Assembly: GCA_965230935.1 (NCBI GenBank)
Contig: OZ246400.1
Span: 87,222-151,221, forward strand
DNA: 64,000 nucleotides
DNA from: an uncultured Gammaproteobacteria bacterium
GTDB taxonomy: Bacteria; Patescibacteriota; Patescibacteriia; Magasanikbacterales; JBBTQS01
Direction of reading: 5' to 3'
The notes beneath the pieces are model-generated. The model was not told where the DNA came from and did not search any database. It saw only the letters and a program-made list of their open reading frames with translations. Positions within the stretch are counted from its first letter, which is position 1. The number at the start of each line of letters is the position of its first letter. Shown here in pieces: positions 7,612 to 64,000 of the stretch. Made by a program: the position numbers and the translations under genes.

Positions 7612-7647
7612 AGCTTTCCTAAGTAGGGTACACTACGGATACAAACT

Positions 7648-48126: not shown

Positions 48127-49425
48127 TTATTTACCAAACTCCATCACCTTTGGATCCATAATAATACTGGATCGAGTCATCATTTTTTTGAGCACTATCC
48201 CATCAAGCGAAGTGCAGCGACTTAGCGCCACATAGGTTTGTCCATGAGCAAAACTTCCACGGCCTAAATCAATAATCACTTTTTCAAACGTTTTCCCTTG
48301 GCTTTTGTGAATGGTAATTGCCCAAGCGAGCTTGAGTGGGAGTTGAGTAAATGATCCCATGATTTCCCGCTCAAAATTGCCATCTTGCAAAACATACCGA
48401 GAAATTTCCCAGGTGTGTTTCGAAACCTCAACAATTTTTCCATCAGCTTTTTCAACTGATAATGTGACACTCGCATCTTCGTTTTGTATATCAACAATCG
48501 TACCAATGGTTCCATTGACCCATCGTCGCTCACTATCATTAGAAATAAACATGACCTGCGCCCCGGCACATACCGTGACCTCAGCGTCATTGGGATAAAG
48601 GTTTTTTGCCACTTTCCCTTCAATGTCGGCGCTAAACGTGATTTGTGGTGTGCCGAGTTTTTCCATTTCTTTCTCATTCACCGTGCGCGCATTGGCATTG
48701 GTCGTCATGAGGTAGATATATGTATCATCCTCATCAGGGGTGAAGTTGCTTTTGTATTGTGCATTCAAAGTGCGCAATTGTGAATTGGTAATACTATTGT
48801 CACGAATTCCATTTAAGATAGTGATAAATTCTTCGTCTCGTTGGCGGTAGATTTCGTTGAGTTCAATGACGTTTAGTTCAAACCCGGTGGCAAAGAATTC
48901 GTCTTGTCCTCCAAATACTTGTGCACTGAAAAAGTATGGTGAGCCATACTCTGCATAAAATTTGTCTCGATCTGCTGCAGTAACGACCGGCGGGAGTTGA
49001 TAGAGATCACCAAAAAAAATCATCTGCACCCCGCCAAATGGCGCAGTGCTTTTTCGTGCTCGACGCAACACAATATCAATTGCATCAAGCAAGTCTGCAC
49101 GCACCATGGAAATTTCATCAATAGCAATTTTTTTCAGGCGGCCAAATTTTTTTTCTTTCTTTTTATCAATGCGCATTTTTTGTGCCTCGTCTTTTTCGTA
49201 TCCCGGTTTGAGACCAAAAAATGAATGAATGGTATCTCCATCAACGTTGATTGCTGCAATACCGGTTGGCGCGACAACAATTACTTTATCCTTTGAACTA
49301 TTACGGATGTATTGCAAAAGAGTGGATTTTCCAGTTCCTGCTTTTCCGGTGACGAATACGTTGTCGGTTGTGTGGTTGATGGTATCAATTGCGCGTTGTG
49401 CTTGGTCGCTAAATGTAATGTCCAT
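48127..49425 (-). CDS. Pif1/RecD-family ATP-dependent DNA helicase
   Basis: Walker A VTGKAGTGKST, motif Ia VVAPTGIAA, and a C-terminal SH3-like/2B region. Length 432 aa. Confidence 0.7.
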   Translation of the reverse strand: MDITFSDQAQRAIDTINHTTDNVFVTGKAGTGKSTLLQYIRNSSKDKVIVVAPTGIAAINVDGDTIHSFFGLKPGYEKDEAQKMRIDKKKEKKFGRLKKIAIDEISMVRADLLDAIDIVLRRARKSTAPFGGVQMIFFGDLYQLPPVVTAADRDKFYAEYGSPYFFSAQVFGGQDEFFATGFELNVIELNEIYRQRDEEFITILNGIRDNSITNSQLRTLNAQYKSNFTPDEDDTYIYLMTTNANARTVNEKEMEKLGTPQITFSADIEGKVAKNLYPNDAEVTVCAGAQVMFISNDSERRWVNGTIGTIVDIQNEDASVTLSVEKADGKIVEVSKHTWEISRYVLQDGNFEREIMGSFTQLPLKLAWAITIHKSQGKTFEKVIIDLGRGSFAHGQTYVALSRCTSLDGIVLKKMMTRSSIIMDPKVMEFGK

Positions 49426-50114: not shown

Positions 50115-51404
50115 ATGAGTATTCAAGTATTACGCAACATTAGGCAGTGTGTTGATGCATGGGAAATCCGGTGGTATCACCATGTATTTATTTTTGTAAT
50201 CGCATTTGTGCTGATTGTCTCACGACGCCCAGATGTAATACTTCATGCCCAATTTTGGGCAGAAGATGGTCGGGTATGGTTTCAACAAGCGTACAATAGT
50301 GGATTTTTTGAAGCACTCCTCACTCCACACACCGGATACTTCCAGACCTTTTCACGAATCTCAGCTGGGGTAGCGCAATTGGTTCCTTTGGTGTTTGCTC
50401 CCTTGGTATTTAATCTTCTTGCAATCGTGATCAAGATTCTCCCAATTCATTTACTCTTTTCAAAACGATTTTCCAAACTCATCCCAAGTGTTTCGACTCA
50501 ATTGTTGATTAGCTTGCTTTATATCGGTTTGCCAAATACTACAGAAGTTTTTGTAAATGTTACTAACACACATTGGTATCTTGCACTCATTGCATTTATG
50601 ATCATTGTTGCCGAGGTGTCAAAGACAATTTGGGGGAAGATTGGTGACGTTGTGTTGCTTGCCCTTTCAGGATTAAGTGGTCCATTTGTGATTTTATTGT
50701 TTCCAGTTGCGCTGGTGCGCTGGTTGGTAAAGAAAGATAGGGCATTTTTGTGGTCTTTTGTCATTATTGTGCTGTGTGCTGTTATCCAAGGGTATTTTAT
50801 TGTACAGACTGCTGTAGATACGCGATCGTCTATGACACTTGGTGCCTCAGTGGGATGGTTTGTAAAAATTGTTTCTGGACAAATCATGATCGCAGCACTC
50901 GTTGGGAAAAAGGGATTTGAATATCTTTATCGCCATGGGGCACTCACTAATCTAGTGTATACTTTGGTATTTTTGTTTGGATTGATTCCTGTTGCGTATA
51001 CGATGCTCAAAGCACGATGGGAGGCGAAGATGTTTGTTGTGTTTGGCACTCTTGTTTTAATAGTATCACTTGCGAAACCGATGGTAAGTCTTACCGAACC
51101 GCAATGGCCAATTATGAGTATTCCAGGAGCTGCAACGCGGTATTGGTTTATTCCAATAGTTGCATTCGTTGGTTCTGTATTGGTTATGGCACATCTTGTG
51201 CGAAAACGATATCTCAAAATACTCTTAACTATCAGTGTGACTGTAATGCTAGGGGTTGGTGTGTTGTGGGACTGGCGTCACGCACCATGGGAAGATCTGC
51301 AATATCGATCACATATTCAACAGTTTGAACAGGCTCACTCTGGGGAGGTATTTCATGTCCCAATCCACCCCAAAGGGTGGAATATGAGTTTAATACGACG
51401 ATAG
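50115..51404 (+). CDS. Large polytopic membrane protein (possible GT-C-like glycosyl/mannosyltransferase)
   Basis: 429 aa with more than 10 TM helices. Assignment is by architecture only. Confidence 0.4.
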   Translation: MSIQVLRNIRQCVDAWEIRWYHHVFIFVIAFVLIVSRRPDVILHAQFWAEDGRVWFQQAYNSGFFEALLTPHTGYFQTFSRISAGVAQLVPLVFAPLVFNLLAIVIKILPIHLLFSKRFSKLIPSVSTQLLISLLYIGLPNTTEVFVNVTNTHWYLALIAFMIIVAEVSKTIWGKIGDVVLLALSGLSGPFVILLFPVALVRWLVKKDRAFLWSFVIIVLCAVIQGYFIVQTAVDTRSSMTLGASVGWFVKIVSGQIMIAALVGKKGFEYLYRHGALTNLVYTLVFLFGLIPVAYTMLKARWEAKMFVVFGTLVLIVSLAKPMVSLTEPQWPIMSIPGAATRYWFIPIVAFVGSVLVMAHLVRKRYLKILLTISVTVMLGVGVLWDWRHAPWEDLQYRSHIQQFEQAHSGEVFHVPIHPKGWNMSLIRR

Positions 51405-51423
51405 AACCCTCTTTACTTAATTA

Positions 51424-51501
51424 ATATAACCAAAACCTCCCACAAGGGGAGGATTTTGGTTATTGCTCACTATCGTGAAGGTTGTTCGAACAGGGTTTTA
51501 C
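51424..51501 (+). repeat. Repeat family copy 1 (hairpin plus U-tract, then conserved 35-bp core)
   Basis: atataaccaaaacctcccacaaggggaggattttggttatTGCTCACTATCGTGAAGGTTGTTCGAACAGGGTTTTAC. It is about 90% identical over roughly 80 bp to copy 2. Confidence 0.8.
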
Positions 51502-51698
51502 TTAGAAAGCAGCTGAAAAGTTGTATTTTTTATATCTAAAATTAAGTTATGACACTCTTGACAAAAAAGCGCTTTTGTGGTAGTTTAATTAGTTCTCCAG
51601 CCAGGAAGAGCAGATGAATGACGCACCTCCTTAACGTGCAAAAAAACAAAAAATCATTCAACTGTTTCTTTAACCCACATGGACTAAGGAGGTCTGCG

Positions 51699-52121
51699 AT
51701 GGGGTATGTTCCTGGTAGGAGTTACACGGGTGTTTCTGTGGTCGTTGATTCGAAGGGGTTGCGTTTCATCTTGCTTTCGAGCAAGGAGGATGCGTGGCAC
51801 TTCCAGCGGCAGTGGTTTGCGCGTAGAGAGGATTATGGCTGCTGCCGTAACCTCTGTTACGACATTAGTGTCAGAGCTGTCGATGGGGAGGAGCGAACTG
51901 ACGATTTGGTGGGTTCTGAGTTCATGCTCAGAGAGTGCCATAGCGATTCGCCTATTCGATTTTCTGATGTCCGAGTCAATCTCAATGCCAATGGGGAGCT
52001 CTTCCTCGTGGTGGTGGGATCGCAGGCTCGAGCGTTCTCTTCTCTGGATCGAGATGGTCATGGGCAGCTGCTTCCTGGTAGGGACGGCAGCCCGGACATC
52101 GCGGTTCTTCACTACTACTAA
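51699..52121 (+). CDS. Hypothetical protein (GC-enriched cassette gene)
   Basis: Strong Shine-Dalgarno AAGGAGG 6 nt upstream of the ATG at 51699. A TTGACA-17-TAGTTT promoter lies upstream (51558). Length 140 aa, no recognised domain. Confidence 0.55.
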   Translation: MGYVPGRSYTGVSVVVDSKGLRFILLSSKEDAWHFQRQWFARREDYGCCRNLCYDISVRAVDGEERTDDLVGSEFMLRECHSDSPIRFSDVRVNLNANGELFLVVVGSQARAFSSLDRDGHGQLLPGRDGSPDIAVLHYY

Positions 52122-52258
52122 CTACTTAAAGGCTCTGGTGCAACGGACGTTGTGTCGGGGCCTTTCGATTTGTGACAAATATGAAAGAGAGGATAAGCAA
52201 AACCTCGATAGGTGATTATCGAGGCTGCGTGGTAAGTTGGTTGAATCCGCGGCGCACG

Positions 52259-52972
52259 TTAGGTGGTATCTTCGGGAAAGATGGTTCCGTACACCTCCAG
52301 ACAGCTCTCTCTAACCTCCCTGTACATCGGATTTTCTCCCGTGAGATCATCCTGAAAAGGTGGTTCAAACGCACCCATGAAGAGCTCTGCTTTACGTTGG
52401 CCAGAGCGCAGCAGCGCCGACAAGTAATCGTAATCTTCCAGCCCAAATGTGGACATGTCATCATGGATCTGTGCGAGCGTCGTACCGATCTCTATGTGAA
52501 GTCCTCGAAGCCCTTCGATTGTACAGCGCATGACACATGCAGGATGTGCGCGATGGTAGTAGTTGTGGACAATCAGGCTCCAGAGCATGTCTTTCCCATC
52601 GATTGGTGCAGAGCTTTCACGCGCAGCCACCTCGCAGCTGATGGGTTCCGGGGGCAAATCATTCCCGTAGATGATCGTGGTGAGGTGGGTGAGAGCATCA
52701 TGGAACGGATAGTTTGCCGGCTCAACGCTCGCATCGTCCTCGTGCAGGTTGCCAAACACAGCATTGATACAGTCGTTCAGATTTTCAGCTACCAGACTGC
52801 GAATGTGTGGGGACGACAAGCGAGACAGGGCATCCCTGCACGCACGAACTCGGCGGTGGTAGTACTGATGTGCCAAAGCCGCAACGCACAGGTGAATTTT
52901 ACTGTTGTGGTTTTGGAAGATCATGCGCGCTCCTGCGCATGAAAGACGTTGGATGTCTTTTTCGATACGCAA
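52259..52972 (-). CDS. Hypothetical protein with internally duplicated H-x-YYHR motif (GC-enriched cassette gene)
   Basis: 237 aa. AHQYYHRRVRAC and VHNYYHRAHPAC suggest an internal duplication. Convergent with the previous gene. Confidence 0.45.
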   Translation of the reverse strand: MRIEKDIQRLSCAGARMIFQNHNSKIHLCVAALAHQYYHRRVRACRDALSRLSSPHIRSLVAENLNDCINAVFGNLHEDDASVEPANYPFHDALTHLTTIIYGNDLPPEPISCEVAARESSAPIDGKDMLWSLIVHNYYHRAHPACVMRCTIEGLRGLHIEIGTTLAQIHDDMSTFGLEDYDYLSALLRSGQRKAELFMGAFEPPFQDDLTGENPMYREVRESCLEVYGTIFPEDTT

Positions 52973-53097
52973 GTCGCGCCTCCTTTACTGGGAGTAGGGA
53001 ATCATCTTTATAGATGTGTGTCAAATTTTAATTAGTGGAAAATAAATAATTTGAACAGACGTTCGCTTTGTTCGCTAGGATTCAAATCAGCTCTCAA

Positions 53098-53176
53098 ATA
53101 TAACCAAAACCCTCCCACAAGGGGAGGATTTTTGGTGTATGCTCACTATCGTGAAGGATGTTAGAACTGGATTTTC
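53098..53176 (+). repeat. Repeat family copy 2
   Basis: aatataaccaaaaccctcccacaaggggaggatttttggtgtaTGCTCACTATCGTGAAGGATGTTAGAACTGGATTTTC. Confidence 0.8.
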
Positions 53177-53222
53177 TCTTGCGTGATGATCATGCTAAAC
53201 TATCCTTAGTTTATTTTGTCAT

Positions 53223-54326
53223 ATGAAAGAAAAATACATACCATCAGCAGCAGAAATTGAAAGAGCTGAGAGCATGATGACTCCTCAGCAGCGTGAAATG
53301 TCAGAAAAGCGGGCCAGATTTAAATTCCAAGAGCGGGATGCTTTTGATGATTTTATGGTACATATTAGTCAGTCAGGAGAGCGGCGAGAGGCGACCGACC
53401 AGGAAAAGGCACGGATGGACAAGAATTTTGCAAAGCTGTGGGAAGTATTAGGTGATTCTGAGATCACGTGGTCTGTGGATGGTGCGCTCAATATATCAGT
53501 ACTACAAGGAGATTATATTGGCATTCATAAAGATGTGGACATCAGCATTGGCATGGATGAAATTGATACGTTAGATGGTGTGTTGCTCAAAGGTGGGTAT
53601 GGTTTGTTTTTGTCCACTCGCCACGAAGTGGGTGGTGAGATGAAAACAATCATGGAACGCGTTGACAGTGATAGATTTCGAGCCGCAGATGTTGATAAGC
53701 GACTTATTGCTGCGATAGATAAGGATGGAAAAATACAAGAGGAAGAAACGTTAAACTTTTTAGACATTCATGTAATTGAAAAAAATGAGGGTGGTAATAT
53801 TGTGGGTTCTGCAGGGGTTGAGTTACCTGAGGAGTGGTTTGTGCCAAGACCTTTGGAATTTAGAGGTACTATGGTTAATACGTCTCATCCTGCAAAAGTG
53901 GCGTATTATAAGCTCCATGATACTCGCAATTACGATCGGACAGATCTTAACAAACTTGCTGAGATTGGCGCACTCGGTGTCGACGATGTGGATACGATAG
54001 GCCGACTTATTGAAGAAGAAATTGCTAATCGAGAGCAAAAAGCAGATGGGGTTTTGGATGATGTGGTACAAAGACTAGATCCAAAAATGGACGCAGAGCA
54101 GATTTTCGCATCAGTAATGCAACATCCTATTTTTGTCCAAGCGGTTGAGCGAAATGAAGATGCAACGAGACAGATTCGTGAGTTTTGTAAACAACTTTCA
54201 GCATTAGATGAGTTGACTTTGCCAAATGTAAAAATGGCAGCAAGCGATGTGTTTAGTATGGATGATATGCATAATACCCTCCGAGCAAATGTTGAGGAGT
54301 TAAGAGGGTGGGTTGAGCAGAAATAA
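53223..54326 (+). CDS. Pol-beta-superfamily nucleotidyltransferase related to ANT(2'')/LinB-type enzymes, with N- and C-terminal extensions
   Basis: TWSVDGALNISVLQGDYIGIHKDVDISIG resembles the GGWAIDA...H-DIDL active-site motif of aminoglycoside-2''/lincosamide nucleotidyltransferases, recalled from memory. 367 aa, longer than the resistance enzymes. Confidence 0.5.
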   Translation: MKEKYIPSAAEIERAESMMTPQQREMSEKRARFKFQERDAFDDFMVHISQSGERREATDQEKARMDKNFAKLWEVLGDSEITWSVDGALNISVLQGDYIGIHKDVDISIGMDEIDTLDGVLLKGGYGLFLSTRHEVGGEMKTIMERVDSDRFRAADVDKRLIAAIDKDGKIQEEETLNFLDIHVIEKNEGGNIVGSAGVELPEEWFVPRPLEFRGTMVNTSHPAKVAYYKLHDTRNYDRTDLNKLAEIGALGVDDVDTIGRLIEEEIANREQKADGVLDDVVQRLDPKMDAEQIFASVMQHPIFVQAVERNEDATRQIREFCKQLSALDELTLPNVKMAASDVFSMDDMHNTLRANVEELRGWVEQK

Positions 54327-54338
54327 TACAAAGCGCAC

Positions 54339-54398
54339 CACAGGAGGTGCATTTTTGCATCAGCTCACTATCTGAAGGATGTTAGAACCGGGTTTTGT
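54339..54398 (+). repeat. Repeat family copy 3 (different hairpin, same core)
   Basis: gcaccacaggaggtgcatttttg, then catcaGCTCACTATCTGAAGGATGTTAGAACCGGGTTTTG. Confidence 0.75.
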
Positions 54399-54425
54399 TC
54401 AATTGGTTGAGTTTGGACTGCATTT

Positions 54426-54965
54426 TTATCTTCTGGAGTTTCTATTAATCATCTCGTCTACACGTTTTGGTTCGAGACCAGCTTCGTATGCCTCCTCCTC
54501 AATTTTTGTAATTTCTTTTCTATAGTCTTTTCCAGTGTGTTCGTTCATTTCTCTGTTAAGTGCTGCTTCTGCTTCATTCTCTAGTCTTTTGACTCTTTCT
54601 AGTTTATGTTCTATAAACGTTTCAATAACATTGTAAAGCTCATCTTTTTCGTCTTGTTCAATCTTTCCCTTGGTACCACCAATACGCTCAAAGATTGATC
54701 GAGCCTCATCTATAAGTGTAAAATACTTTTCATTTATTTGAGCTATTTGTCCAGTTAAATAAGATGCATTACCAGGAGTTTTAATTTTGTACTCCTTAAA
54801 ATCATTCATCGTTGGAAATTCCATAACAATGTCATTTATGATTGGCTCTATTTCCAATTCAAATGCGGTAGTAAATTTTTTAAGTTTTTCTTCTATCAAC
54901 CCTCTTTTCTCGTTAGAGAATTTTGATGGTTCGTATTCAGGGATTGTATCAATTAAATTTGTCAT
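54426..54965 (-). CDS. Hypothetical charged helical protein
   Basis: About 180 aa, Glu/Lys-rich, no recognised motif. The start was chosen at MTNLID. Confidence 0.45.
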   Translation of the reverse strand: MTNLIDTIPEYEPSKFSNEKRGLIEEKLKKFTTAFELEIEPIINDIVMEFPTMNDFKEYKIKTPGNASYLTGQIAQINEKYFTLIDEARSIFERIGGTKGKIEQDEKDELYNVIETFIEHKLERVKRLENEAEAALNREMNEHTGKDYRKEITKIEEEAYEAGLEPKRVDEMINRNSRR

Positions 54966-55046
54966 ATTTTTGTAATTCCATCTCTTAAGAGAGTAACACA
55001 AAAATTCTGATACCCATATTTCTTACTTCAAATATTCTTTAAATTT

Positions 55047-55090
55047 ACCAAAAATGCTCACTATTGTGAAGGATGTTCGAACTGTATTTT
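55047..55090 (+). repeat. Repeat family copy 4 (core only, hairpin absent)
   Basis: accaaaaaTGCTCACTATTGTGAAGGATGTTCGAACTGTATTTTG. Confidence 0.75.
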
Positions 55091-55097
55091 GCGGAGT

Positions 55098-55844
55098 TTA
55101 ATCTCTTTTTATCAACGGAATCATGTTAGCAAATATAGATGGCATATCTGTTTTCTTAACAAGGATCAGAAAATTATTCTCATGCATTTGATCATAAACT
55201 GATGGAAACAGCCAGTTTTTTCCATCAACTTTTATCATGAAAACAAATCCTCTTGGCAAGACTATTTCATAGTAACTAGCCTCATCTTTACTTTCTATTA
55301 AGCCACTTATTTGACTAATTCCTCTGACAACCTGGTTTATTTTTTTATCTGTTGACTCTTGCCTATAAACAAAGACTTGTATCTGTCTTGCGGCATCCAA
55401 GTCGTTGTCTCTTATCGCTTTTAAAAAAGTACTTTCATGGTCGCCCAAATCAACACCCCTCGCTTCTTCTCTGGCTGATATGTGAAACCTCCACAATAGC
55501 GATAGAGCGAATAGCTGAAGGTGGTCTAGGTTAGCATTTGGTAAGATTAGATACTCATTGTCTCTTACAGTTGTTCTGGTTGGCTTAGTGGATATCAAAA
55601 TATTTTTCACCGACTCATCATAGACACCGATTTTTGCATCACACTCTCTACACAATATCTTAGCATCATATGAACCATCAGGGCGTTTTTTATTCAGGGT
55701 GTCTTTGCCTACCAAAAGTACGTGGTCGTTACTTGCTTGCTTTTTTTGCTCTTTAATTACCCACTTCGGGAATAGGTGAGATTTGCATCTATTTTTTTCG
55801 TTAATCTTTACATGACACATGCGACAATAAATATCTTCTTCCAT
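55098..55844 (-). CDS. Protein with N-terminal HNH-like zinc-finger nuclease motif
   Basis: CRMCHVKINEKNRCKSHLFPKW...ILCRECDAKIG fits the Cys pair, H-h-h-P, then LCxxC-xxxG pattern of HNH endonucleases. A C-terminal domain of about 170 aa is unknown. Confidence 0.45.
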   Translation of the reverse strand: MEEDIYCRMCHVKINEKNRCKSHLFPKWVIKEQKKQASNDHVLLVGKDTLNKKRPDGSYDAKILCRECDAKIGVYDESVKNILISTKPTRTTVRDNEYLILPNANLDHLQLFALSLLWRFHISAREEARGVDLGDHESTFLKAIRDNDLDAARQIQVFVYRQESTDKKINQVVRGISQISGLIESKDEASYYEIVLPRGFVFMIKVDGKNWLFPSVYDQMHENNFLILVKKTDMPSIFANMIPLIKRD

Positions 55845-55861
55845 ATTTTTTTGTACTAGAG

Positions 55862-56488
55862 TTATGGTAGTGACTCACATGCCATACCATCTGTGTCACG
55901 ATCAAGTCCATGTATATCATGTGCGACATTGCTCAAACAACACTCATAGAGATCCTGTGCTTGTTGTTGCGTAGAAAAATCTTTGCAGTTGTAGATGTTG
56001 TTTGAGCAATTACAACTTGGCACAGGTACTTTTGTGGGAGGGGTAATAACAGGCTCATCCACTGGATCTTCGATTTCTTTCTCGATTGTAGGTAACTCTT
56101 CATTTGGTGTCTTTGTAGACTTAGTACTTTCTAGAACCTCTTTCCCAGCTTCTGTATTTAACGACTTATTATTGCTAGTTACCAGATCTTCCAATTCTAT
56201 AATTTCCTGTACGATATTTTCGATGGAGAGGGTCTTATCAGAGGTATTTTCAATTTGAATTACTTCATCGCCTAATGAAGTTTCCTTCTCCTGAATCGTA
56301 GTAAATTCTTCGTCTATTTGCTGTGCTTCTTGGATGGTACCTTCATCAATTTCTGCAACAGGTGTTTCTACCATCACTGATTTCTCAAATTGTTGAACTT
56401 CGGGTAGCGGTAGACTTCCTTGTTCACAACCAGCACCTATTAGCGAAATTGTTAGCACTATGAGTAGAATTTTTATCTTCGCAAACAT
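55862..56488 (-). CDS. Lipoprotein with C-terminal Excalibur calcium-binding domain
   Basis: Lipobox LIGAGC, then an acidic low-complexity linker, then a C-terminal [13 protein letters not shown]...[10 protein letters not shown] Excalibur-type motif. Confidence 0.6.
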
Positions 56489-56546
56489 AATCTTGATGTT
56501 TGAGTATTGTCACTGTGAACGGTCGATGGTGATTGGTGGGGTTTTA

Positions 56547-57938
56547 CTACCAGAATTTTAGTTTTCTAAACAGTATCTCAATAAAAGATTCTGGCTCTTC
56601 AATTTTTGTCACACGCTCGCGTGGCTTTGCTTTTGGTCTTATCCACTCACAGGTATTACCGACTTCTTTATAGTTTTCGTCACACAACCAAACATCTGTG
56701 GTACTTTCTACAGCATGAGCGTGTTCTGGTATCATTACACAGAATTTTTTATTAAGAGATGGTGCGTATCCGTCTTCACAATTCAATGTTGTCGGTTTAT
56801 TAAAAGGCTTTGCTGCTGGCCTCTCCTTCAAGACATTTGTGTCTTTAACAACTTCCTCGATTTTTATTTGTGGATTCTGCAGTTCAATTACTGACTCTGT
56901 AATTGTATTATCATAATTGATTAAATCAATAACAATATCATTTTCTTCCTCCTCCTCAACACAATAATCGTTCTTAAATATATATCCATCACGACAGACA
57001 CACTCTTTTAACCAGGAGTCATATTCTGAATGATATCCATACCGATCACTACAGTAATCGCTAGCACCGATACATTTTTGTGAAGTGCTGTCAAATAAAT
57101 ATTCACTTTTACACCCGCATGTATCTCCAAGTACCGTAGCTTCAGAATAATAACCGTAAAGATTTTGGCAGTAATCGTCGTTGCTTATGCATTTCGTAAC
57201 ACTCTCATTAAATCTATACCCGTACTTACATTCACATTTGTCTCCTGCGAGATTCGATTTTGCATTGTAACCGTATGTATTTTTACATGAATCATCAACA
57301 CTGATGCACTTTGTTCCGTGGCTATTGAACACGTAACCATAGTTACATTCACAAGTTTTGTCTACTGAGTTGAAATTGGATCCGTAACCATACTCTTGCG
57401 TGCAATAGCTACTACCTAGAATACAAGATTCACCACCGAAAGTGCCTGTATCGACGACGTAGCCATAGTTGCACTTGCAATCCCCACTCAGAGAGTTATA
57501 TGTCGAATTGAGGGGGCAGTTAGGTTGCTGGTCTAGGTAGAAGTTTCCGAAATTATAGTTTGAGTAAGTATCGTAATTATTACCAGGTTGGTTAGATTCG
57601 TAGAGACTCTTACCAGTGTAATAATCAGGGTCTGTTATGTATGTTGGTGTATCCCAATAGGTATCTCTTGTCCCGTAGGAATCGTTGTAAAGTCCCTGGC
57701 TGGGCTTCCATCCGTAGTTATCGTACTTTAAGCCATTTGGGTTGCTCCTGACGTGTGGTTTGACATATGTTCCATCACTTCTGTAGTAACCCTTTACAGA
57801 GACATATGCATCTGCTGTAAGTGGTGAGAATATGGTGGATGTCGCTACGATTAGGACGACGACTGTGAATTTTAATATGTTGCTATTCATAATTTCTCTA
57901 TCAATCATAGTATCTAATAGTAATGCAATTCGAGTCAA
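56547..57938 (-). CDS. Secreted Cys-rich tandem-repeat protein
   Basis: Signal peptide, a Tyr/Asn/Asp-rich region, then five tandem modules of about 37 aa (C-x-C-x-YGY-x-F...KCI-x-DD-x-C-x-N-x-YGY). The C-terminus has additional Cys pairs. Confidence 0.6.
   Translation of the reverse strand: MTRIALLLDTMIDREIMNSNILKFTVVVLIVATSTIFSPLTADAYVSVKGYYRSDGTYVKPHVRSNPNGLKYDNYGWKPSQGLYNDSYGTRDTYWDTPTYITDPDYYTGKSLYESNQPGNNYDTYSNYNFGNFYLDQQPNCPLNSTYNSLSGDCKCNYGYVVDTGTFGGESCILGSSYCTQEYGYGSNFNSVDKTCECNYGYVFNSHGTKCISVDDSCKNTYGYNAKSNLAGDKCECKYGYRFNESVTKCISNDDYCQNLYGYYSEATVLGDTCGCKSEYLFDSTSQKCIGASDYCSDRYGYHSEYDSWLKECVCRDGYIFKNDYCVEEEEENDIVIDLINYDNTITESVIELQNPQIKIEEVVKDTNVLKERPAAKPFNKPTTLNCEDGYAPSLNKKFCVMIPEHAHAVESTTDVWLCDENYKEVGNTCEWIRPKAKPRERVTKIEEPESFIEILFRKLKFW
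56963..57500 (-). repeat. Tandem repeats of about 111 bp encoding the Cys-rich modules
   Basis: Recurring gtaaccgta/gtaaccata and acattcaca blocks at the nucleotide level. Five copies at the protein level. Confidence 0.55.
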
Positions 57939-57982
57939 TATCTATATCAGAATATCCAAGAGCTTCATCTACAAAATTTTGA

Positions 57983-59392
57983 CTAAAACCTACCTAAGGC
58001 TGTGGCATTTTCAAAAAATGTATCATGGACGACCGCTTTAATTAGTAGGTCGATCTTGTTTGTGATCTCTCCTTCCTCTATCTTTTGCGTTGCATACTCT
58101 TTATCATTCTCACTAAAAATGAAGTGGCCACTTAGTGAGAATGAATTAGTAGGAATAAGAAAGAAATTTTCAATCAAATTATCACCGTCTTTATCTACAC
58201 CAACTCCGAGTATATAGTCATATTTCCTTGCAGAATCGGGTATTGAAAAACACCAGTGCTTATTCCGTGAATTTTCGGCACTATAAAATGCAACACTCGA
58301 ATATACAGGTAAGTTTTTCAATACAAAATAGATACCTTCCTCATCAATTCGTTTCTCAAGTAAATATTCCTCTAGATCTTTTCTTAGTTGCTTTTCGGCT
58401 TTTCTGATTTTGTATACCCCCTTGTTTGAGCGTGAAGGTAGTAGCCAATACAGTTTTTCCTGTACTCTATAAAACATTTCGTCATTGATGATTGGTTCAA
58501 ATGCCTTCTCTACGATTACCCAATCTTTTCTTTGATTTCGTCTGTAGCCACGTTTTAGTTTGTTACTAGTTTTGTTATACAAAAGAGTGCCTCTGTACGT
58601 TTCATTTGAGAGTACGTGAACTATTTTGGAGCTATTCCATTCTCCGCCACCAGGAGATTTAATGCCTTGGTTATCTAGACCACGTGCGATTTCGTTAGGT
58701 GAGGTGTTATCTAAGTCAAAAAGTTTAAAAATCTTTTTAACAGTTTCTGTAGATTCATCATTGGCAGGAACAAAGACTATTCTCCCATTTGCCAGAGCTT
58801 TTCTTTGCCCTTTTTTTAGAATGCGTTCAGGTTGTTTTTGTTCGTCCAAGAGGAGTCTTGCGTAACCATAAGGCGCAATTCCACCGACAGAGTAACCTTT
58901 TGATGTTATCTTGATACATCCATTAAAAACTTTTTTACTCAAATCTCTACTATATTCTGATGCAGATGCACGCTTAAGACTTCTAATCACTCCTGAAAAT
59001 GTCTGGTTGTCATCTTCTTTGGGAAACGGTTCCGAAGTATACAGAACTTTCTTTCCATGCTCTTTACATACAAATTCATAATGACCAGCTTCATTACTGT
59101 CGTCGAATCTGCCCCAACGAGAATCGTCGTATACTAACACATAATCAAACTCAGGTGCGTTGGGATTCTTTACCCAATCATTTATGAGTGATTGAAAACC
59201 AGGTCTGTCAGCCACAAGCCCAGTGTGCTTATCTTCTAAAGAATGGATGATCTCAACGTTATTTTGGTCGGCGTACTCTTTGGCAGCATCTTGCTGAATC
59301 TCAATCGAGTACTCTTGCATATCACGAGTCGACCTGCGACTATATGAAATTGCCTTTTTGGATTGACTCTCTCTAAACAACTGCCTAGCCAT
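57983..59392 (-). CDS. Large serine recombinase (resolvase/integrase family)
   Basis: N-terminal resolvase catalytic motif AISYSRRSTRDMQEYSIEIQ, then a recombinase domain (GYSVGGIAPYGY) and a long C-terminal region. Length 469 aa. Confidence 0.75.
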   Translation of the reverse strand: MARQLFRESQSKKAISYSRRSTRDMQEYSIEIQQDAAKEYADQNNVEIIHSLEDKHTGLVADRPGFQSLINDWVKNPNAPEFDYVLVYDDSRWGRFDDSNEAGHYEFVCKEHGKKVLYTSEPFPKEDDNQTFSGVIRSLKRASASEYSRDLSKKVFNGCIKITSKGYSVGGIAPYGYARLLLDEQKQPERILKKGQRKALANGRIVFVPANDESTETVKKIFKLFDLDNTSPNEIARGLDNQGIKSPGGGEWNSSKIVHVLSNETYRGTLLYNKTSNKLKRGYRRNQRKDWVIVEKAFEPIINDEMFYRVQEKLYWLLPSRSNKGVYKIRKAEKQLRKDLEEYLLEKRIDEEGIYFVLKNLPVYSSVAFYSAENSRNKHWCFSIPDSARKYDYILGVGVDKDGDNLIENFFLIPTNSFSLSGHFIFSENDKEYATQKIEEGEITNKIDLLIKAVVHDTFFENATALGRF

Positions 59393-59396
59393 ACTC

Positions 59397-60341
59397 TTAC
59401 AGCACTGTGTCGGTTACTTCTTTCAACTCAGAGAGGGCAACTTTCTCTTTTTCCTCGAAGCCCTTACCTTTTTGGAGTCTTTTTGCTATGGATCGGGTCA
59501 ATTCCTCAATTTGCAATGAGAGACCTGACAAGATAGTATTTTCAGCGAGTTGCTTAACTCCCATGTCGTCATTTTTCAAGAACTGTAATAGCTCTTTCTT
59601 GTTGGCTTCTGTGCGCTTCACAACGCGGCTGATCGTTCGATATTCCTTTGCTGAGTTAATTACCTCATGTCGTGTTTTGTAAAAAATGCGATCTACGACA
59701 TCTTTAATCTTAAACTCGTCTATGTCTCGAATTTTCGGGTATAGTTTTACGAATTCAACTATGTAGGATTCCTCATCGAGAAGTTCGTATTTCCTTAGAA
59801 GGTTCATGTACCTCTCTTCAATCTTTTTTAGATTAAGTGAATTCGTAACAACAGTGCTGGACATGTTAAGTGCTTTTGCTATTTCCTTAGGCTTCATGCC
59901 TGTTTCTTCGCGGATAGTGTTTAGTGCAGCAGAACGCTCTAAAGGTTTCCAAGAGCGTCTGTTGTTCTGTGCTTCATATCTGATCAATTCCAAATCACCC
60001 TTACTTGTATTTTTAGGTAAGACCTTACATGCAAGTTCTTCAATTTTTAGCTTCTTGGCAGAGCGAAATCTGCGATGACCATCTAAGATGAGGTAGGTAT
60101 CATTGCCTCTATCCAGTACCAGCAAATCTCGAAGAACACCCCATTTTTTGATGGATTCCAAAATTCTATTTTTATCTCCGTCAAGACCGAAGTCTCTTCG
60201 TGGTTGCTTCTTGTCTTCCACTAACTGCGAAGTTTTGAGTATTTTTTGCTTGATAACTTTTTCATTCATAGAAAACTCTTTTGAACGTAACTTCCTTCTT
60301 GGATTAGGAAAAACCCTATCATAAGGGTTCAAAAAAGTCAA
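59397..60341 (-). CDS. ParB-like nuclease/partition domain protein
   Basis: LILDGHRRFRSA matches the ParB/Srx GxxR-DGHHR-type motif. Possible HTH in the middle. The start is ambiguous (TTG at 60341 or ATG at 60269). Confidence 0.6.
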   Translation of the reverse strand: MTFLNPYDRVFPNPRRKLRSKEFSMNEKVIKQKILKTSQLVEDKKQPRRDFGLDGDKNRILESIKKWGVLRDLLVLDRGNDTYLILDGHRRFRSAKKLKIEELACKVLPKNTSKGDLELIRYEAQNNRRSWKPLERSAALNTIREETGMKPKEIAKALNMSSTVVTNSLNLKKIEERYMNLLRKYELLDEESYIVEFVKLYPKIRDIDEFKIKDVVDRIFYKTRHEVINSAKEYRTISRVVKRTEANKKELLQFLKNDDMGVKQLAENTILSGLSLQIEELTRSIAKRLQKGKGFEEKEKVALSELKEVTDTVL

Positions 60342-60355
60342 CTCATTGAGTTGAC
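60337..60355. promoter_or_regulatory. Perfect 9-1-9 palindrome at the parB-like 5-prime end (candidate operator or parS-like site)
   Basis: GTCAACTCA-T-TGAGTTGAC. Confidence 0.35.
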
Positions 60356-60480
60356 GTACTATGAATAATAGTCAATTTTGACTAAAATTAGTTTTTTCTA
60401 GTAAAGAGAGAGTTTATTTTTATGAGTTGGTAATCCTAATTACATCTTCCACAACTGATAATTTTTGCAAGCACACATCT

Positions 60481-61122
60481 TTATTTTCCCCATGTTATCT
60501 CATATTCTTTCATCATCCTCTTTTGTTCTTTTTTTGCTCTTGGATCTACAATCAATACCACTTCGTCGTCACATGTTCTTACTTTGTCGAGTTTTTGCTG
60601 GGCTAACTTTCTTCCGTGGTCTATTTGGTATTTACCATTCAATACATTCATATAAATCTGCTTCATTATATCCAAGTTGTTGTAAAGAATGCTTCTTAAA
60701 AGTTTACCTCTAGCCAGGTCTTCTATAGCTTCTACTAGATTCTTGCTGGGTTCAAATTTACCCTCTTTATCACTGTCTATAAATTCATTCAATTCCTTAG
60801 CTTCTAAATTTCTCGCTAACTTTAAGCGCTCAATATGTTCCCGCTCTGATATTTCATAATCTCTAACCATGTTTTGTAGGTCCAAATTTTTCGTGCCAGA
60901 AGTTGAGTTTATATCATTGTAAAAAATGTTTAACAAAAATAGTGGCGCAGATAGGTTTTTTATCTCAAAAATAATTTCTCTCAGGCTTTGGTATCCGTCT
61001 TTATGTCTTCGGTTACTGTCCATCCTGTTGAGTTTCTTTTCTAATCGTCCAATACTTGTAAAGACAAAACGATATAGGAGGTAAAGAAACATAATGATAA
61101 TTAGGAATTGTAGTGTACTCAT
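60481..61122 (-). CDS. Hypothetical N-terminally membrane-anchored protein
   Basis: One TM helix, then a charged helical domain. It is the first gene of the minus-strand operon. Length 213 aa. Confidence 0.45.
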   Translation of the reverse strand: MSTLQFLIIIMFLYLLYRFVFTSIGRLEKKLNRMDSNRRHKDGYQSLREIIFEIKNLSAPLFLLNIFYNDINSTSGTKNLDLQNMVRDYEISEREHIERLKLARNLEAKELNEFIDSDKEGKFEPSKNLVEAIEDLARGKLLRSILYNNLDIMKQIYMNVLNGKYQIDHGRKLAQQKLDKVRTCDDEVVLIVDPRAKKEQKRMMKEYEITWGK

Positions 61123-61327
61123 AATTGTCCTGTGTTAGTTATTCTGTCTGCTTATTTGAGTTTTGCTGCCTAATCAAAAAAGGACAGCCACGGTCTAGCC
61201 ACAAATTTGTCTGCACAGGGCATCCAATTGTGGACGTGACTGCCCATCTTTACGCACAATTGCGAAAATAAGGACAGATCCCTGTGGTTTAAATTTGTAG
61301 CTAGACATTGCAGTTATAACAGAAAAC
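61123..61327. promoter_or_regulatory. Divergent control region of the mobile/replicon module
   Basis: It separates a leftward and a rightward operon. It holds several GGACAG/CTGTCC half-sites and three ACAATTGT-like palindromic motifs (ccacaaatttgt, ccaattgtgg, gcacaattgcg). Confidence 0.4.
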
Positions 61328-61345
61328 TTGCAAAAAATCAAAGAA

Positions 61346-62101
61346 ATGCAATACTGGATTCGTATGCATAAAGATGATGATACAAAAATAAGGCAGGAGG
61401 CCTATACTATTTTGAGGAAGATGGTTGATATCGTCGAGAATGAACAGTGGTCTCTGGTTTTACTTCCAGAAGCGAATGGTGTGGTTGTCACTGGCGATAG
61501 TTTGGTCCTACAGCATGGCTATACAATTCAGCATGAATTTGATAGTGCAGGAGTCGTAAGCTATGTGAATGATTACGTGGATGGGATCAGTAAGCTAAAT
61601 GAGCTTTCATTTGTTACAACAACATTGGTGGATATTAGTGATCGTCCGATGACTTCCCCGACCCTCAAGTACAATTGCAATTTCCAGATTTCCGATATGA
61701 GAAAAGCAAAAGAGAAGTTAAGGGGTTTAAGCAGAGAGTACATTTCAAAAATATCTGATGAGAGCGGAGATGGTAATCGGGCTATTGAAGTCTATTACAT
61801 TCCAAAAAAACGTAATGGGTATGTTCATTTCAAAGGTGAAGAGATTATGCGTTTCGGTGGTCGCAGAGGGTTAATCCTTGAATTCTTTTTCCAGAGAAGA
61901 GAAACTAATAGATATTATTCTGCATACGATATGGCGGCAGCGAGCATAAACATAACACCTGGAAGGCTCAGCGATGAGATAAAGGAAATTAACAGGCTGT
62001 TTTGGCGTGAAACAGATATTGAGATGTTGATTCAAAGTAGGCGCTATTGCGAGGGTCGAGAGTTGCCGAAAAAATTGGACGAGTATCGTTGGGCGCTTTA
62101 A
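61346..62101 (+). CDS. Hypothetical protein
   Basis: About 250 aa, no recognised motif. The ATG at 61346 is preferred over the TTG at 61328. Confidence 0.45.
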   Translation: MQYWIRMHKDDDTKIRQEAYTILRKMVDIVENEQWSLVLLPEANGVVVTGDSLVLQHGYTIQHEFDSAGVVSYVNDYVDGISKLNELSFVTTTLVDISDRPMTSPTLKYNCNFQISDMRKAKEKLRGLSREYISKISDESGDGNRAIEVYYIPKKRNGYVHFKGEEIMRFGGRRGLILEFFFQRRETNRYYSAYDMAAASINITPGRLSDEIKEINRLFWRETDIEMLIQSRRYCEGRELPKKLDEYRWAL

Positions 62102-62241
62102 GCGCTATCGTGTCAGTATCCTGTTAATAAGTAGTTAAAACCAGTTATTTTACTGGTCTTTTTTGTATGGAGAACGATGACAAGACGATGAAAAAATTTG
62201 TGTAAAGATAAAGACATCGGAATTGCAAATAGTGCAATGTT

Positions 62242-62397
62242 CAAATGTTGATCCAGATGTCAATACCTCCAAAGTTAATTCAAGAATTTCAAAAATTGTA
62301 TGAGGCAAGATTTGGTATTGAGCTCTCAGAGAAGGAAGCTTTGGAGAAAGGAACACAGCTGATCTTGCTGATGCGTGCCGTTTACAAACCTACTAAA
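62242..62397 (+). CDS. Small helical protein (unannotated ORF, possible regulator)
   Basis: 51 codons MLIQMSIPPKLIQEFQKLYEARFGIELSEKEALEKGTQLILLMRAVYKPTK. Helical and amphipathic. It sits directly upstream of the primase-like gene. Confidence 0.25.
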
Positions 62398-62402
62398 TAA
62401 GT

Positions 62403-63113
62403 ATGGTACAGGAAACTCACACAATTCAAGATCCAAGGACACGCAGTGCACGGAGAAAATTGCCAGAGACAGAATTCCTTTGGTCGTGGCGCTTGTCACG
62501 TGGATATTTGTACGAGACTGATCAGGAAATTGAGCAGTCGGAGAATACAGTGGGGCATTTGGAAAAAATACGAAAAAAGAATCGGCGCAGATTCACAGAC
62601 AGGGAATTATTTGCCTTGTTTCCTGAGGCAAAGGACATGATTTTGGAACTTATAACCACAATGTTGGTGGAGCGGAAGTCAGTTGTTGCAAGGATCAAGG
62701 TTGCACTTAGAAACGCTACTACGGAGGATCAGCGTTCGAGAGTAAGGCTTGAGGGAGAGAGGAAGTTAAAAGAGGTGGATGGTCATCTAAATCGACTAAG
62801 GAGGCAATGGCGTTTCATCAAATATGAGAAGCCTGACAAAACTGGGTCTGATCGCATTGATCAGGCGGCCATAGAGCAAGCAAAAGAGGTACCAATACAA
62901 GATTTCTTGGACGTTGAGTTCAAGCAAGTTGGAAATAAGCTTCTCGCGTCTTGTCCACTGCATAATGAACGGACACCCTCTTTCTATGTGTATCAAGATA
63001 CAAATACCGCGTGGTGTTATGGGTGCCAGCAAGGTGGTGATTCAATCACAATTGCAAAGTTGACACATGGGTATTCATTTCAGGAGGCCGTGGCCTTCCT
63101 AATAAACAAGTAA
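62403..63113 (+). CDS. Protein with C-terminal CHC2 primase-type zinc finger
   Basis: CPLHNERTPSFYVYQDTNTAWCYGCQQGGDSI matches the DnaG/P4-alpha CHC2 zinc-ribbon pattern CP.H.E.TPSF...C.GC..GGD. No TOPRIM domain within the 236 aa. Confidence 0.55.
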   Translation: MVQETHTIQDPRTRSARRKLPETEFLWSWRLSRGYLYETDQEIEQSENTVGHLEKIRKKNRRRFTDRELFALFPEAKDMILELITTMLVERKSVVARIKVALRNATTEDQRSRVRLEGERKLKEVDGHLNRLRRQWRFIKYEKPDKTGSDRIDQAAIEQAKEVPIQDFLDVEFKQVGNKLLASCPLHNERTPSFYVYQDTNTAWCYGCQQGGDSITIAKLTHGYSFQEAVAFLINK

Positions 63114-63117
63114 GTGT

Positions 63118-64000
63118 ATGTATCAAGATGAAATTGACAAAATTGAAGCTGAGGTCACAGAGGAGGTTGCATTGAGGCCGATTACAATATCAGAACTGTT
63201 GACTCAGACTTTTGATGATGTAGAGTGGATTGTCGATGGTCTAATCCCAGCAGAGAGTATTGTGATTCTGTCAGGGCAGCCAGCTTGTTACAAGACTTGG
63301 ATCCTGCTTGAATTTGCAATTCAAATCGCGCAAGGTCTGCCAGTATTCAAGCATTTCGATTCAGAGAAAACAGGAGTGCTCATAGTTGACGAAGAGTCTG
63401 GTGCACGATTACTACAGAAGAGGATAAAAAGTATGTGGACCTCTGTTTGTGGAGATGTGCCAATACATATTTTGAGTTACGCAAATTTTTCCGTGAAAGA
63501 AAATACTATTGAGCACCTAATTCGGTATTCTCAGGAAAAAGGAATAGGGTTAGTAATATTTGATTCATTAGTACGCATACACAAATCAGATGAAAATGAC
63601 GCTTCTGGGATGTCCAGAGTCTTCAGCGAACTAAGACGATTCAACAAGGCCAATATTTCCGTATTGCTGGCACACCACCACAGGAAAAGAAGCAAAGACG
63701 GTATAAAAATGGATCAATCCCAGGAGATGCGTGGTAGCTCTGATATCTTGGCAGCCGTGGACAGTCATGTGGCTGTAACAAAAAGAGATGGACATGTTGT
63801 TATGCAGCAAACAAAGATGAGGTATAGAGAGGAGGTTTCACCATTTAAGGTGAATATCATAAGTGAGAACGAATCATTTGCTTTCGAATATGGTGGCGAA
63901 ATAGATGAAATCAATGATAAGAAAAGTGACTTTAAGGCAGCGATAATGGCTTTTCTCGAAGGATCTGAGAATCTTTTGTATAAGGGGGAGCTATATGCGT
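63118..64000 (+). CDS. RepA/AAA_25-like RecA-fold ATPase (partial, runs off window)
   Basis: DGLIPAESIVILSGQPACYKTWILLEFAIQIAQG resembles the AAA_25 Walker-A context of plasmid/phage RepA-like helicase loaders. Walker B-like LVIFDSL. No stop codon before the window end. Confidence 0.5.
   Translation, partial: MYQDEIDKIEAEVTEEVALRPITISELLTQTFDDVEWIVDGLIPAESIVILSGQPACYKTWILLEFAIQIAQGLPVFKHFDSEKTGVLIVDEESGARLLQKRIKSMWTSVCGDVPIHILSYANFSVKENTIEHLIRYSQEKGIGLVIFDSLVRIHKSDENDASGMSRVFSELRRFNKANISVLLAHHHRKRSKDGIKMDQSQEMRGSSDILAAVDSHVAVTKRDGHVVMQQTKMRYREEVSPFKVNIISENESFAFEYGGEIDEINDKKSDFKAAIMAFLEGSENLLYKGELYA

Follow-up and report, generated by a model that had tools for sequence, protein, structure and literature searches.

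Why do copies of one short sequence lie between unrelated genes, all in the same orientation, beside a mobile element? This question is raised by a window of 64,000 nucleotides, the whole stretch of DNA analyzed here, which is part of a metagenome-assembled genome of the Patescibacteria (candidate phyla radiation, CPR) from ENA project PRJEB17505. Between a 429-aa membrane-protein gene and an integrated mobile element, this window contains four copies of a 35-nt core, which an earlier note made from the sequence alone had taken to partition an accessory region into gene cassettes. Little is known about the gain and loss of accessory genes in the CPR, which have tiny genomes. We show here that the repeat family is real, statistically secure and local, that its copies share one orientation and a sharp right boundary, and that they match compositional boundaries at the edge of a recombinase-bearing element. 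We tentatively interpret the four copies as att-type (attachment-site) junction repeats from successive insertions at one hot spot.

Four Direct Copies of a 35-nt Core

A pattern search of the window identified four direct copies of the core, all on the plus strand. Copy 1 is located at 51465-51499 (GCTCACTATCGTGAAGGTTGTTCGAACAGGGTTTT) and copy 2 at 53141-53175. Copy 3, at 54363-54396, carries a 1-nt deletion after CTATC and was found with a gapped pattern. Copy 4, at 55056-55090, ends 8 nt from the stop of a 248-aa gene. The 27-mer GCTCACTATCGTGAAGGATGTTCGAAC was matched at 51465, 53141 and 55056 with one mismatch each, and the pattern CTCACTAT-N(0-2)-TGAAGG fits all four copies. According to their alignment, 28 of the 35 positions are invariant, with a divergence of 9-17 % between copies, and the expected number of core matches in dinucleotide shuffles was 0.00. 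The proposed family of four same-strand direct repeats with a 35-bp core is thus borne out against a chance expectation of 0.00, and all copies are indeed intergenic relative to the gene calls. In copy 4, the NGG of the earlier consensus reads TGT instead.

On the right, similarity between the copies ends abruptly, directly after TTTT. Its left limit is WTG; only copies 1 and 2 have more in common, their similarity extending through a shared hairpin to give repeats of 76-78 nt that are ~87 % identical. The core contains no dyad symmetry beyond an 8-bp palindrome, GTTCGAAC, which is broken in copies 2 and 3.

The array is confined to one place. Its four cores lie within 3.6 kb, and the other ~70 kb examined contain none. 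Even at E<=10, a sequence-only covariance model of the four copies detected no fifth one, whether in the window, in the adjacent 9 kb on its right side (locus L004) or in the other loci fetched, and each half of the core, searched by itself, was absent elsewhere. Neither the genome collection (one genome per GTDB species) nor IMG/VR had a match to the core pattern; in IMG/VR, relaxed half-patterns matched only the half searched for. Plasmid and phage BLAST searches with the core returned nothing, and a single match in a JGI metagenome was rejected as an unrelated, high-GC chance match. Genome-wide spread of the motif, which would have spoken for a generic element, has thus not been seen so far, with 0 further cores in the ~73 kb covered, out of a genome contig of 931 kb, and 0 in public collections.

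Core Copies Coincide with Steps in Base Composition

The positions of the core copies coincide with steps in base composition, from 49 % GC in the segment between copies 1 and 2 (segment A) to 42 % between copies 2 and 3 (segment B) and 32 % between copies 3 and 4 (segment C). At third codon positions (GC3) the corresponding values are 58 %, 35 % and 26 %, compared with 37-43 % in reference genes of this genome. Because GC and GC3 differ so strongly among the three intervals, we consider it probable that the segments have separate origins. Their lengths range from 0.7 to 1.7 kb, and this spacing excludes CRISPR, tandem or iteron repeats. Overall, the suggestion that the repeats divide the region into modules holds up well: the cores are located at base-composition steps and border an integrative element that encodes two large serine recombinases, and segment C encodes an ORFan.

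Copy 1 is placed 3' of the 429-aa membrane-protein gene. Segment A (51500-53097), whose open reading frames (ORFs) have 53 % GC, begins with a 140-aa gene on the plus strand (51699-52121) that has an AAGGAGG ribosome-binding site, its own TTGACA promoter at 51559 and a terminator. The 140-aa product has no family match in Pfam/NCBIfam-type domain searches. The second ORF of segment A is either 52259-52924 on the minus strand or 52181-52942 on the plus strand, and gene callers picked the plus strand. Two signals speak for the minus-strand ORF instead: an AGGAG ribosome-binding site (5 nt; start ATG at 52924) and, at 52226-52201, a terminator on the same strand. This minus-strand ORF had 0 homologues among 1.8 billion cluster representatives, and neither strand reading of the second gene has a homologue. 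Over the GC-rich stretch 51600-52972, each strand has several open frames, with ORFs of 167, 169 and 142 aa, and then of 256 and 237 aa.

Segment B carries one gene of 367 aa on the plus strand (53223-54326), which encodes a nucleotidyltransferase-like protein (weak PF10706 match) and has a host-like GC3. Segment C carries a 179-aa gene on the minus strand (54426-54965), an ORFan of 32 % GC whose product had no homologue but itself among 5.8 billion proteins. The mixed gene orientation noted earlier is therefore certain for the 179-aa gene, whereas the second ORF of segment A could be on either strand. For the cassette proteins other than the 140-aa product, PADLOC gave 0 matches and a PDB search found nothing significant.

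Hairpins Beside the Cores

Terminator-like hairpins stand 5' of three of the four cores. Copies 1 and 2 have the same hairpin, CCTCCCACAAGGGGAGG (51436-51452 and 53111-53127), which flanking A- and T-tracts extend to a stem of 14-16 bp; the form common to both copies reads AACCAAAAC(C)CTCCC-ACAA-GGGGAGGATTTT(T)GG. In its full extent (H1, 51426-51462; A-tract, stem, T-tract), the hairpin at copy 1 is terminator-like in both directions, with z = -4.1 on the plus strand and -4.5 on the minus strand, and is located 22 nt past the stop of the 429-aa plus-strand gene. Its counterpart at copy 2 (H2, 53098-53140, both strands) is nearly identical to H1. Should the second gene of segment A be the minus-strand ORF, no plus-strand gene would end 5' of H2. 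At copy 3, a hairpin of other sequence (H3, 54334-54351, both strands; GCACC-ACAGGA-GGTGC, then a T-run) has the same placement relative to the core, lies 8 nt past the stop of the 367-aa plus-strand gene and reads as the terminator of that gene. H1, H2 and H3 all have the GC-rich stem-loop and T-run of a Rho-independent terminator on both strands, a property of the hairpins and not of the core. There is no hairpin at copy 4 (z = +0.5).

These results agree with the earlier description of ~40 additional bp with an identical hairpin in copies 1 and 2 and of an unlike hairpin at copy 3. It is plausible that copy 4 corresponds to copy 1 with its hairpin deleted, in that ACCAAAA...AT-GCTCAC is common to both, but the comparison involves only ~12 AT-rich bases.

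The 367-aa Gene Family in Other Patescibacteria

The 367-aa protein belongs to a family that is widespread in the CPR (named only from Parcubacteria, Uhrbacteria, Falkowbacteria and similar groups), its best relative being 47 % identical. In other Patescibacteria, the neighborhoods of the homologues are unrelated. One homologue, in GCA_041643115.1 (locus L012, 7737-9336), is located downstream of tRNA-Val in a 1.5-kb stretch bounded by the 17-nt direct repeat CACC(A/G)GAAAGGAAATTG, the left copy of which overlaps the tRNA-Val 3' end. By its layout, this stretch looks like a single-gene islet with att-like repeats. A second homologue (locus L013) is bracketed by two inverted copies (6091-6257 and 7571-7729) of a ~170-nt palindromic element, which match over 113 nt at 93 % complementarity (arms GGTTTCAAAATG...), with a large serine recombinase gene and a tRNA-like sequence 1.5 kb away. 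A third is found downstream of tRNA-Glu (locus L023). Judging from these settings, the 367-aa gene seems to be mobile by itself, as a unit of one gene, in several lineages. Searches of viral contigs with the 367-aa protein and with the 469-aa recombinase of the adjoining element gave no match.

In L023, two 37-nt direct repeats 105 nt apart (4470-4611) were observed upstream of tRNA-Glu and of the nucleotidyltransferase homologue; they contain the hairpin ATGTTCGAAGCCGGGATCTGAACAT. They were rejected as relatives of the core, because the 11-mer common to both, GGATGTTCGAA, scores E = 1.6, which is chance level.

The Adjoining Integrative Element

To the right of copy 4 begins an integrated mobile element of ~11.5 kb with ~38 % GC, which places the repeats at its left margin. 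Its left part is at 55098-64000, and the element runs on past the window. On the minus strand this left part encodes 248-, 208- and 463-aa products, which in PHROGs match families of unknown function only, a 469-aa large serine recombinase (57983-59392), a ParB/KorB-like DNA-binding protein (59397-60341, 4 kb from the array) and a 213-aa product. Its plus-strand genes in the window encode a 257-aa product and a primase-like zinc-ribbon protein (62403-63113). Past the window follow an AAA_25/DnaB_C-like helicase, two small ORFs, a 558-aa large serine recombinase and then tRNA-Gln(CTG). The two recombinases are not adjacent to each other. With NCBIfam Ccr models, scores were 25-83 bits compared to cut-offs of 700-900, which places them outside CcrA, CcrB and CcrC.

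The ORF of the 558-aa recombinase (12501-14188 of L004, ~64.9-66.6 kb when numbered as in the window) extends into tRNA-Gln(CTG), a gene of the opposite strand that is followed directly by dnaX. Because this last ORF reaches the tRNA gene, the element ends at, or in, that gene. Ends in tRNA genes are unusual for serine recombinases. The 3' 25-mer of tRNA-Gln(CTG) had no match in the window at <=3 mismatches. A tRNA fragment or tRNA-derived att site as the source of the core was rejected; there is no T-arm pairing, and the core has only the T-loop-like GTTCGAAC.

Proposed Successive Insertions at a Hot Spot

How might such an array have arisen? Our preferred, though tentative, answer is that the four copies are att-type junction repeats produced by successive insertions at one hot spot. 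Site-specific recombination would have brought foreign DNA into the hot spot, directly downstream of the 429-aa membrane-protein gene, in several independent pieces, and each insertion would have left a copy of the ~35-bp site between old and new DNA. Segments A, B and C would be minimal or decayed inserts without a recombinase of their own. The recombinase would act in trans; candidates are the two large serine recombinases encoded next to the array and an integrase from another part of the genome. The hairpins would be ordinary bidirectional terminators, and at copies 1 and 2 the hairpin would fall within the duplicated stretch, giving the longer repeat.

Several features together argue for repeated targeted insertion: the copies share one orientation and the same sharp boundaries, they fall on compositional steps, the genes between them are accessory or orphan, and the array borders an element that carries recombinases. 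From this combination we infer an origin by recombination and the candidate enzymes. The abrupt boundaries point to insertion junctions because diverged duplications would fade gradually. As is characteristic of accretion, direct repeats stand at the junctions of segments of different origin. This interpretation is favored further because homologues of the segment-B gene sit in unrelated neighborhoods, two of them in repeat-bounded settings (L012 and L013).

A number of observations weigh against insertion at a hot spot. The same repeat does not close the far end of the region by a target gene or tRNA: no core was found near tRNA-Gln or elsewhere in L004, so that the large element is not itself bracketed by the core site. 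Pfam tables for ~73 kb (the window plus 9 kb) contain no tyrosine recombinase or IntI, and the two large serine recombinases are the only ones encoded. Very short repeats are the norm at the flanks of elements moved by serine recombinases (PMC5704250). Beyond its 8-bp palindrome the core lacks dyad symmetry, and inserts of 0.7-1.7 kb are far below known accreted islands in size. Population assemblies from four sequencing runs have the same arrangement throughout, with no empty site or deletion variant, and their contig ends are plain breaks. The collections searched hold no genome close enough for comparison. The sole relative in the genome collection (locus L011), whose PIF1-type helicase gene is 74 % identical, is not syntenic here, and the best homologue of the 429-aa protein is 57 % identical, with differing contexts.

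If correct, this interpretation would mean that single genes stacked between copies of one short site, beside an element with serine recombinases, are a concrete route of gene capture in the CPR. If serine recombinases made the array, cassette-style accretion would extend beyond tyrosine recombinases and staphylococcal cassette chromosome (SCC) elements. Should the repeat instead be regulatory or a relic, it would be a local curiosity of one lineage.

Comparison with Known Systems

Elements that lack a recombinase and lie between att repeats are documented to accrete in tandem (PMC5704250). In accretion of the ICESt1/ICESt3 type, including cis-mobilizable elements (CIMEs) with attL, internal att and attR sites, several direct repeats share one orientation and recombinase-less segments of differing origin lie beside a recombinase-bearing element, as they do here (PMC5704250). 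By contrast, those systems employ a tyrosine integrase and consist of units of several to tens of kb, whereas our locus has no tyrosine integrase, intervals of 0.7-1.7 kb and no far-end copy. Composite islands split by several direct repeats of large serine recombinases are likewise documented, and their repeats vary mostly at third codon positions (PMC7029136, Table 3). In SCC composite islands, with CcrAB/CcrC recombinases and 18-nt repeats at orfX, there are also large serine recombinases of ~450 and ~550 aa together with a replication module, at least three direct repeats delimit modules of which some are without recombinase genes, and repeat variants are mostly synonymous (PMC7029136). 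However, the recombinases of our element are only remote and non-adjacent relatives of Ccr proteins (49-83 bits, compared to cut-offs of 700-900), the repeat is 35 nt long instead of 18 and lies outside the 3' end of any conserved gene, and the modules are much smaller.

With integron cassette arrays, the locus has in common small units of one or two genes, a recurring site in one orientation and unrelated gene content. It differs in having no IntI, no attC-type stem, no R''/L''-L'/R' boxes and no GTTRRRY core, and in that its genes are in both orientations, with promoters and terminators of their own. The conserved 35 nt are unpaired in both strands and outside the hairpin; only the hairpins fold, and no consistent RNA or DNA fold of the core was found. 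Because the conserved boxes of attC pair with each other and the core does not fold, an attC-like structure is excluded. The attC-like cassette array considered earlier thus fails on several counts: the core is unpaired in bottom-strand DNA folds, copy 4 has no hairpin, IntI is absent and the genes are not co-oriented. Nor are the cassettes promoterless and co-oriented, as most would be in an integron, given the opposite strand of the 179-aa gene and the TTGACA promoter and terminator of the 140-aa gene. A miniature, integron-like gene-capture array of a different kind, with single-gene cassettes in any orientation, a 35-bp asymmetric site and no tyrosine integrase, seems unlikely to us. Its enzyme would presumably be one of the two adjoining large serine recombinases or an uncharacterized protein of the element.

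The pdif sites of Acinetobacter plasmids, which are recognized by XerC/XerD, are 28-bp imperfect palindromes in alternating orientation. Modules bounded by pdif resemble the present segments in being discrete, in comprising one to three genes of mixed orientation and in having a short recombination site at their bounds, but the core described here is asymmetric and always direct. Phage morons are inserts of promoter, gene and terminator without a recurring bounding sequence. Segment B, with its core, gene and terminator, is moron-like, as is the difference in GC between insert and surroundings; unlike morons, the segments here are bounded by a recurring sequence.

A Possible Small ORF in the Core

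On the plus strand, an open frame of 15-17 codons starts from the WTG that marks the left edge of the core in three of the four copies (1, 2 and 4). These possible small ORFs are located at 51463-51516 (TTG start; (L)LTIVKVVRTGFYLESS, then stop), 53139-53186 (MLTIVKDVRTGFSLA, then stop) and 55054-55101 (MLTIVKDVRTVFCGV, then stop), and the peptide stretch is MLTIVKDVRTGF. In copy 3 the frame is broken because CAG replaces the start codon and 1 nt is deleted. Five of seven substitution events in this frame are synonymous against a background of 27 %, among them CGA/AGA and a three-way ACA/ACT/ACC site; P is ~0.015 for one frame and roughly 0.05 once about three open frames are allowed for. A GGAGG sequence is present 11 nt 5' of the start in copies 1 and 2, inside the 3' arm of the hairpin. 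Similarity ends at codon 12-13, and the C termini are unrelated. No long ORF follows the core at any copy, and there is no similar peptide elsewhere in the window. At copy 4, the stop of the small ORF (TAA, plus strand, 55099-55101) overlaps the stop of the 248-aa gene (minus strand, 55098-55100).

The coding-like signal in the core is weak, but it has a precedent. The direct repeats of SCC composite islands are formed by the final codons of orfX, and most differences among their variants fall on third positions (PMC7029136, Table 3), a pattern paralleled by the five of seven synonymous changes in the core.

Alternative Explanations

What else could account for four such copies? A role in regulation, which we regard as rather doubtful, would have a bidirectional terminator followed by a protein-binding site or promoter insulate and co-regulate the accessory genes, for example via a repressor or a ParB-like protein. 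Three of the four copies come directly after a terminator-like hairpin, all are intergenic, and a gene for a ParB/KorB-like protein is 4 kb away. In addition, a sigma-70-like match (TTCACA-17-(TG)TAAATT; 9/12 plus the TG extension) overlaps copy 4 on the minus strand at 55042-55070, ~75 nt upstream of the 179-aa gene. The TTCACA-17-TAAATT match on which a shared promoter or operator was proposed earlier is confirmed in copy 4, but a promoter fits this copy only: copies 1-3 have no sigma-70 hexamers spaced 16-18 nt apart, the place of the -10 hexamer is taken up by the hairpin at copies 1 and 2, and minus-strand promoters at copies 1 and 3 would fire antisense into converging genes. Gene orientation is inconsistent with a common regulatory role, copies 1 and 2 being upstream of plus-strand genes, copy 3 between convergent genes and copy 4 between tandem minus-strand genes. 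A site of 35 nt without symmetry is unlike parS or typical operators, the divergent control region of the element itself (61.1-61.3 kb) contains no core copy, and the compositional steps are left unexplained. Two specific candidates were also rejected: a parS site or operator, in view of a single 8-bp palindrome, broken in two copies, and no half-sites elsewhere; and a T7-type promoter, which has CTCACTAT in common with the core, because the copies do not conserve the -17 to -12 region and the neighborhood has no gene for a single-subunit RNA polymerase. A transcript from the minus strand, in which the conserved 35 nt would precede a Rho-independent terminator in the way that small RNAs or 3' untranslated regions end, is very unlikely. 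On that strand, copies 1-3 are indeed followed within 3-11 nt by a stem-loop and T-run, and copies 3 and 4 are located within or after the leftward operon of the element. However, the core has neither a conserved fold nor a conserved promoter upstream, copy 4 is without a terminator, and no leftward gene feeds into copies 1 and 2. A search of 51380-55150 against Rfam gave no family match, even at E<=5, and nothing below E = 1.9, with only tRNAs reaching the gathering score.

The small ORF leads to a different explanation, according to which the core (M/L-LTIVK-D/V-VRT-G/V-F...) would be a multi-copy micropeptide gene or the 5' end of a former target gene that is re-supplied with each insert. 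The WTG start, which in three copies falls precisely where the conserved block begins on the left, the excess of synonymous changes and the GGAGG of copies 1 and 2 are consistent with this, but with seven events only, similarity that ends after 12-13 codons, a broken copy 3, no ribosome-binding site at copy 4 and neither a long ORF downstream nor a related peptide in the window, we consider it improbable. Its target-gene version is compatible with att-type junctions and has parallels in the integration of SXT at prfC and of SCC at orfX. Alternatively, the copies could be inert relics: as the island was rearranged, unequal or homologous exchange between intergenic regions of similar sequence would have made local duplicates of a terminator with its flank. 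No function could be attached to the core, its copies differ by 9-17 % and the layout is fixed in all assemblies, as would be expected of relics; sharp boundaries that are the same in four copies, and compositionally unrelated segments, are hard to produce without a targeted process, and we think this quite improbable. A hairpin with a nick site for an HUH enzyme, resembling an origin of transfer (oriT) or of replication, would allow a reaction to start at one copy and stop at the next and release the interval as a circle. Sites of oriT and IS91-type ends consist of an inverted repeat and a few bases on a conserved single-stranded stretch, which the hairpin and conserved stretch in constant orientation resemble, and a gene for a PIF1/RecD-type helicase lies 2 kb upstream. 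Yet no relaxase or Rep domain was detected among the neighboring products, H3 differs in sequence, copy 4 has no hairpin and the conserved stretch is much longer than known nick regions, which makes such a site highly improbable.

Surroundings of the Array

From position 1 to ~48 kb the window contains housekeeping genes of ~45 % GC. The PIF1/RecD-type helicase gene is located at 48127-49425. In L011, the sole related genome found, this gene has another place and orientation relative to the genes for FtsEX, Dus, a HAD protein and thymidine kinase, which indicates that the 41-51 kb stretch to the left of the repeats has also been rearranged between lineages. At the opposite end of the window, positions 1-2000 have 56 % GC compared to ~44 % in the neighboring glycosyltransferase cluster, and may represent another foreign segment.

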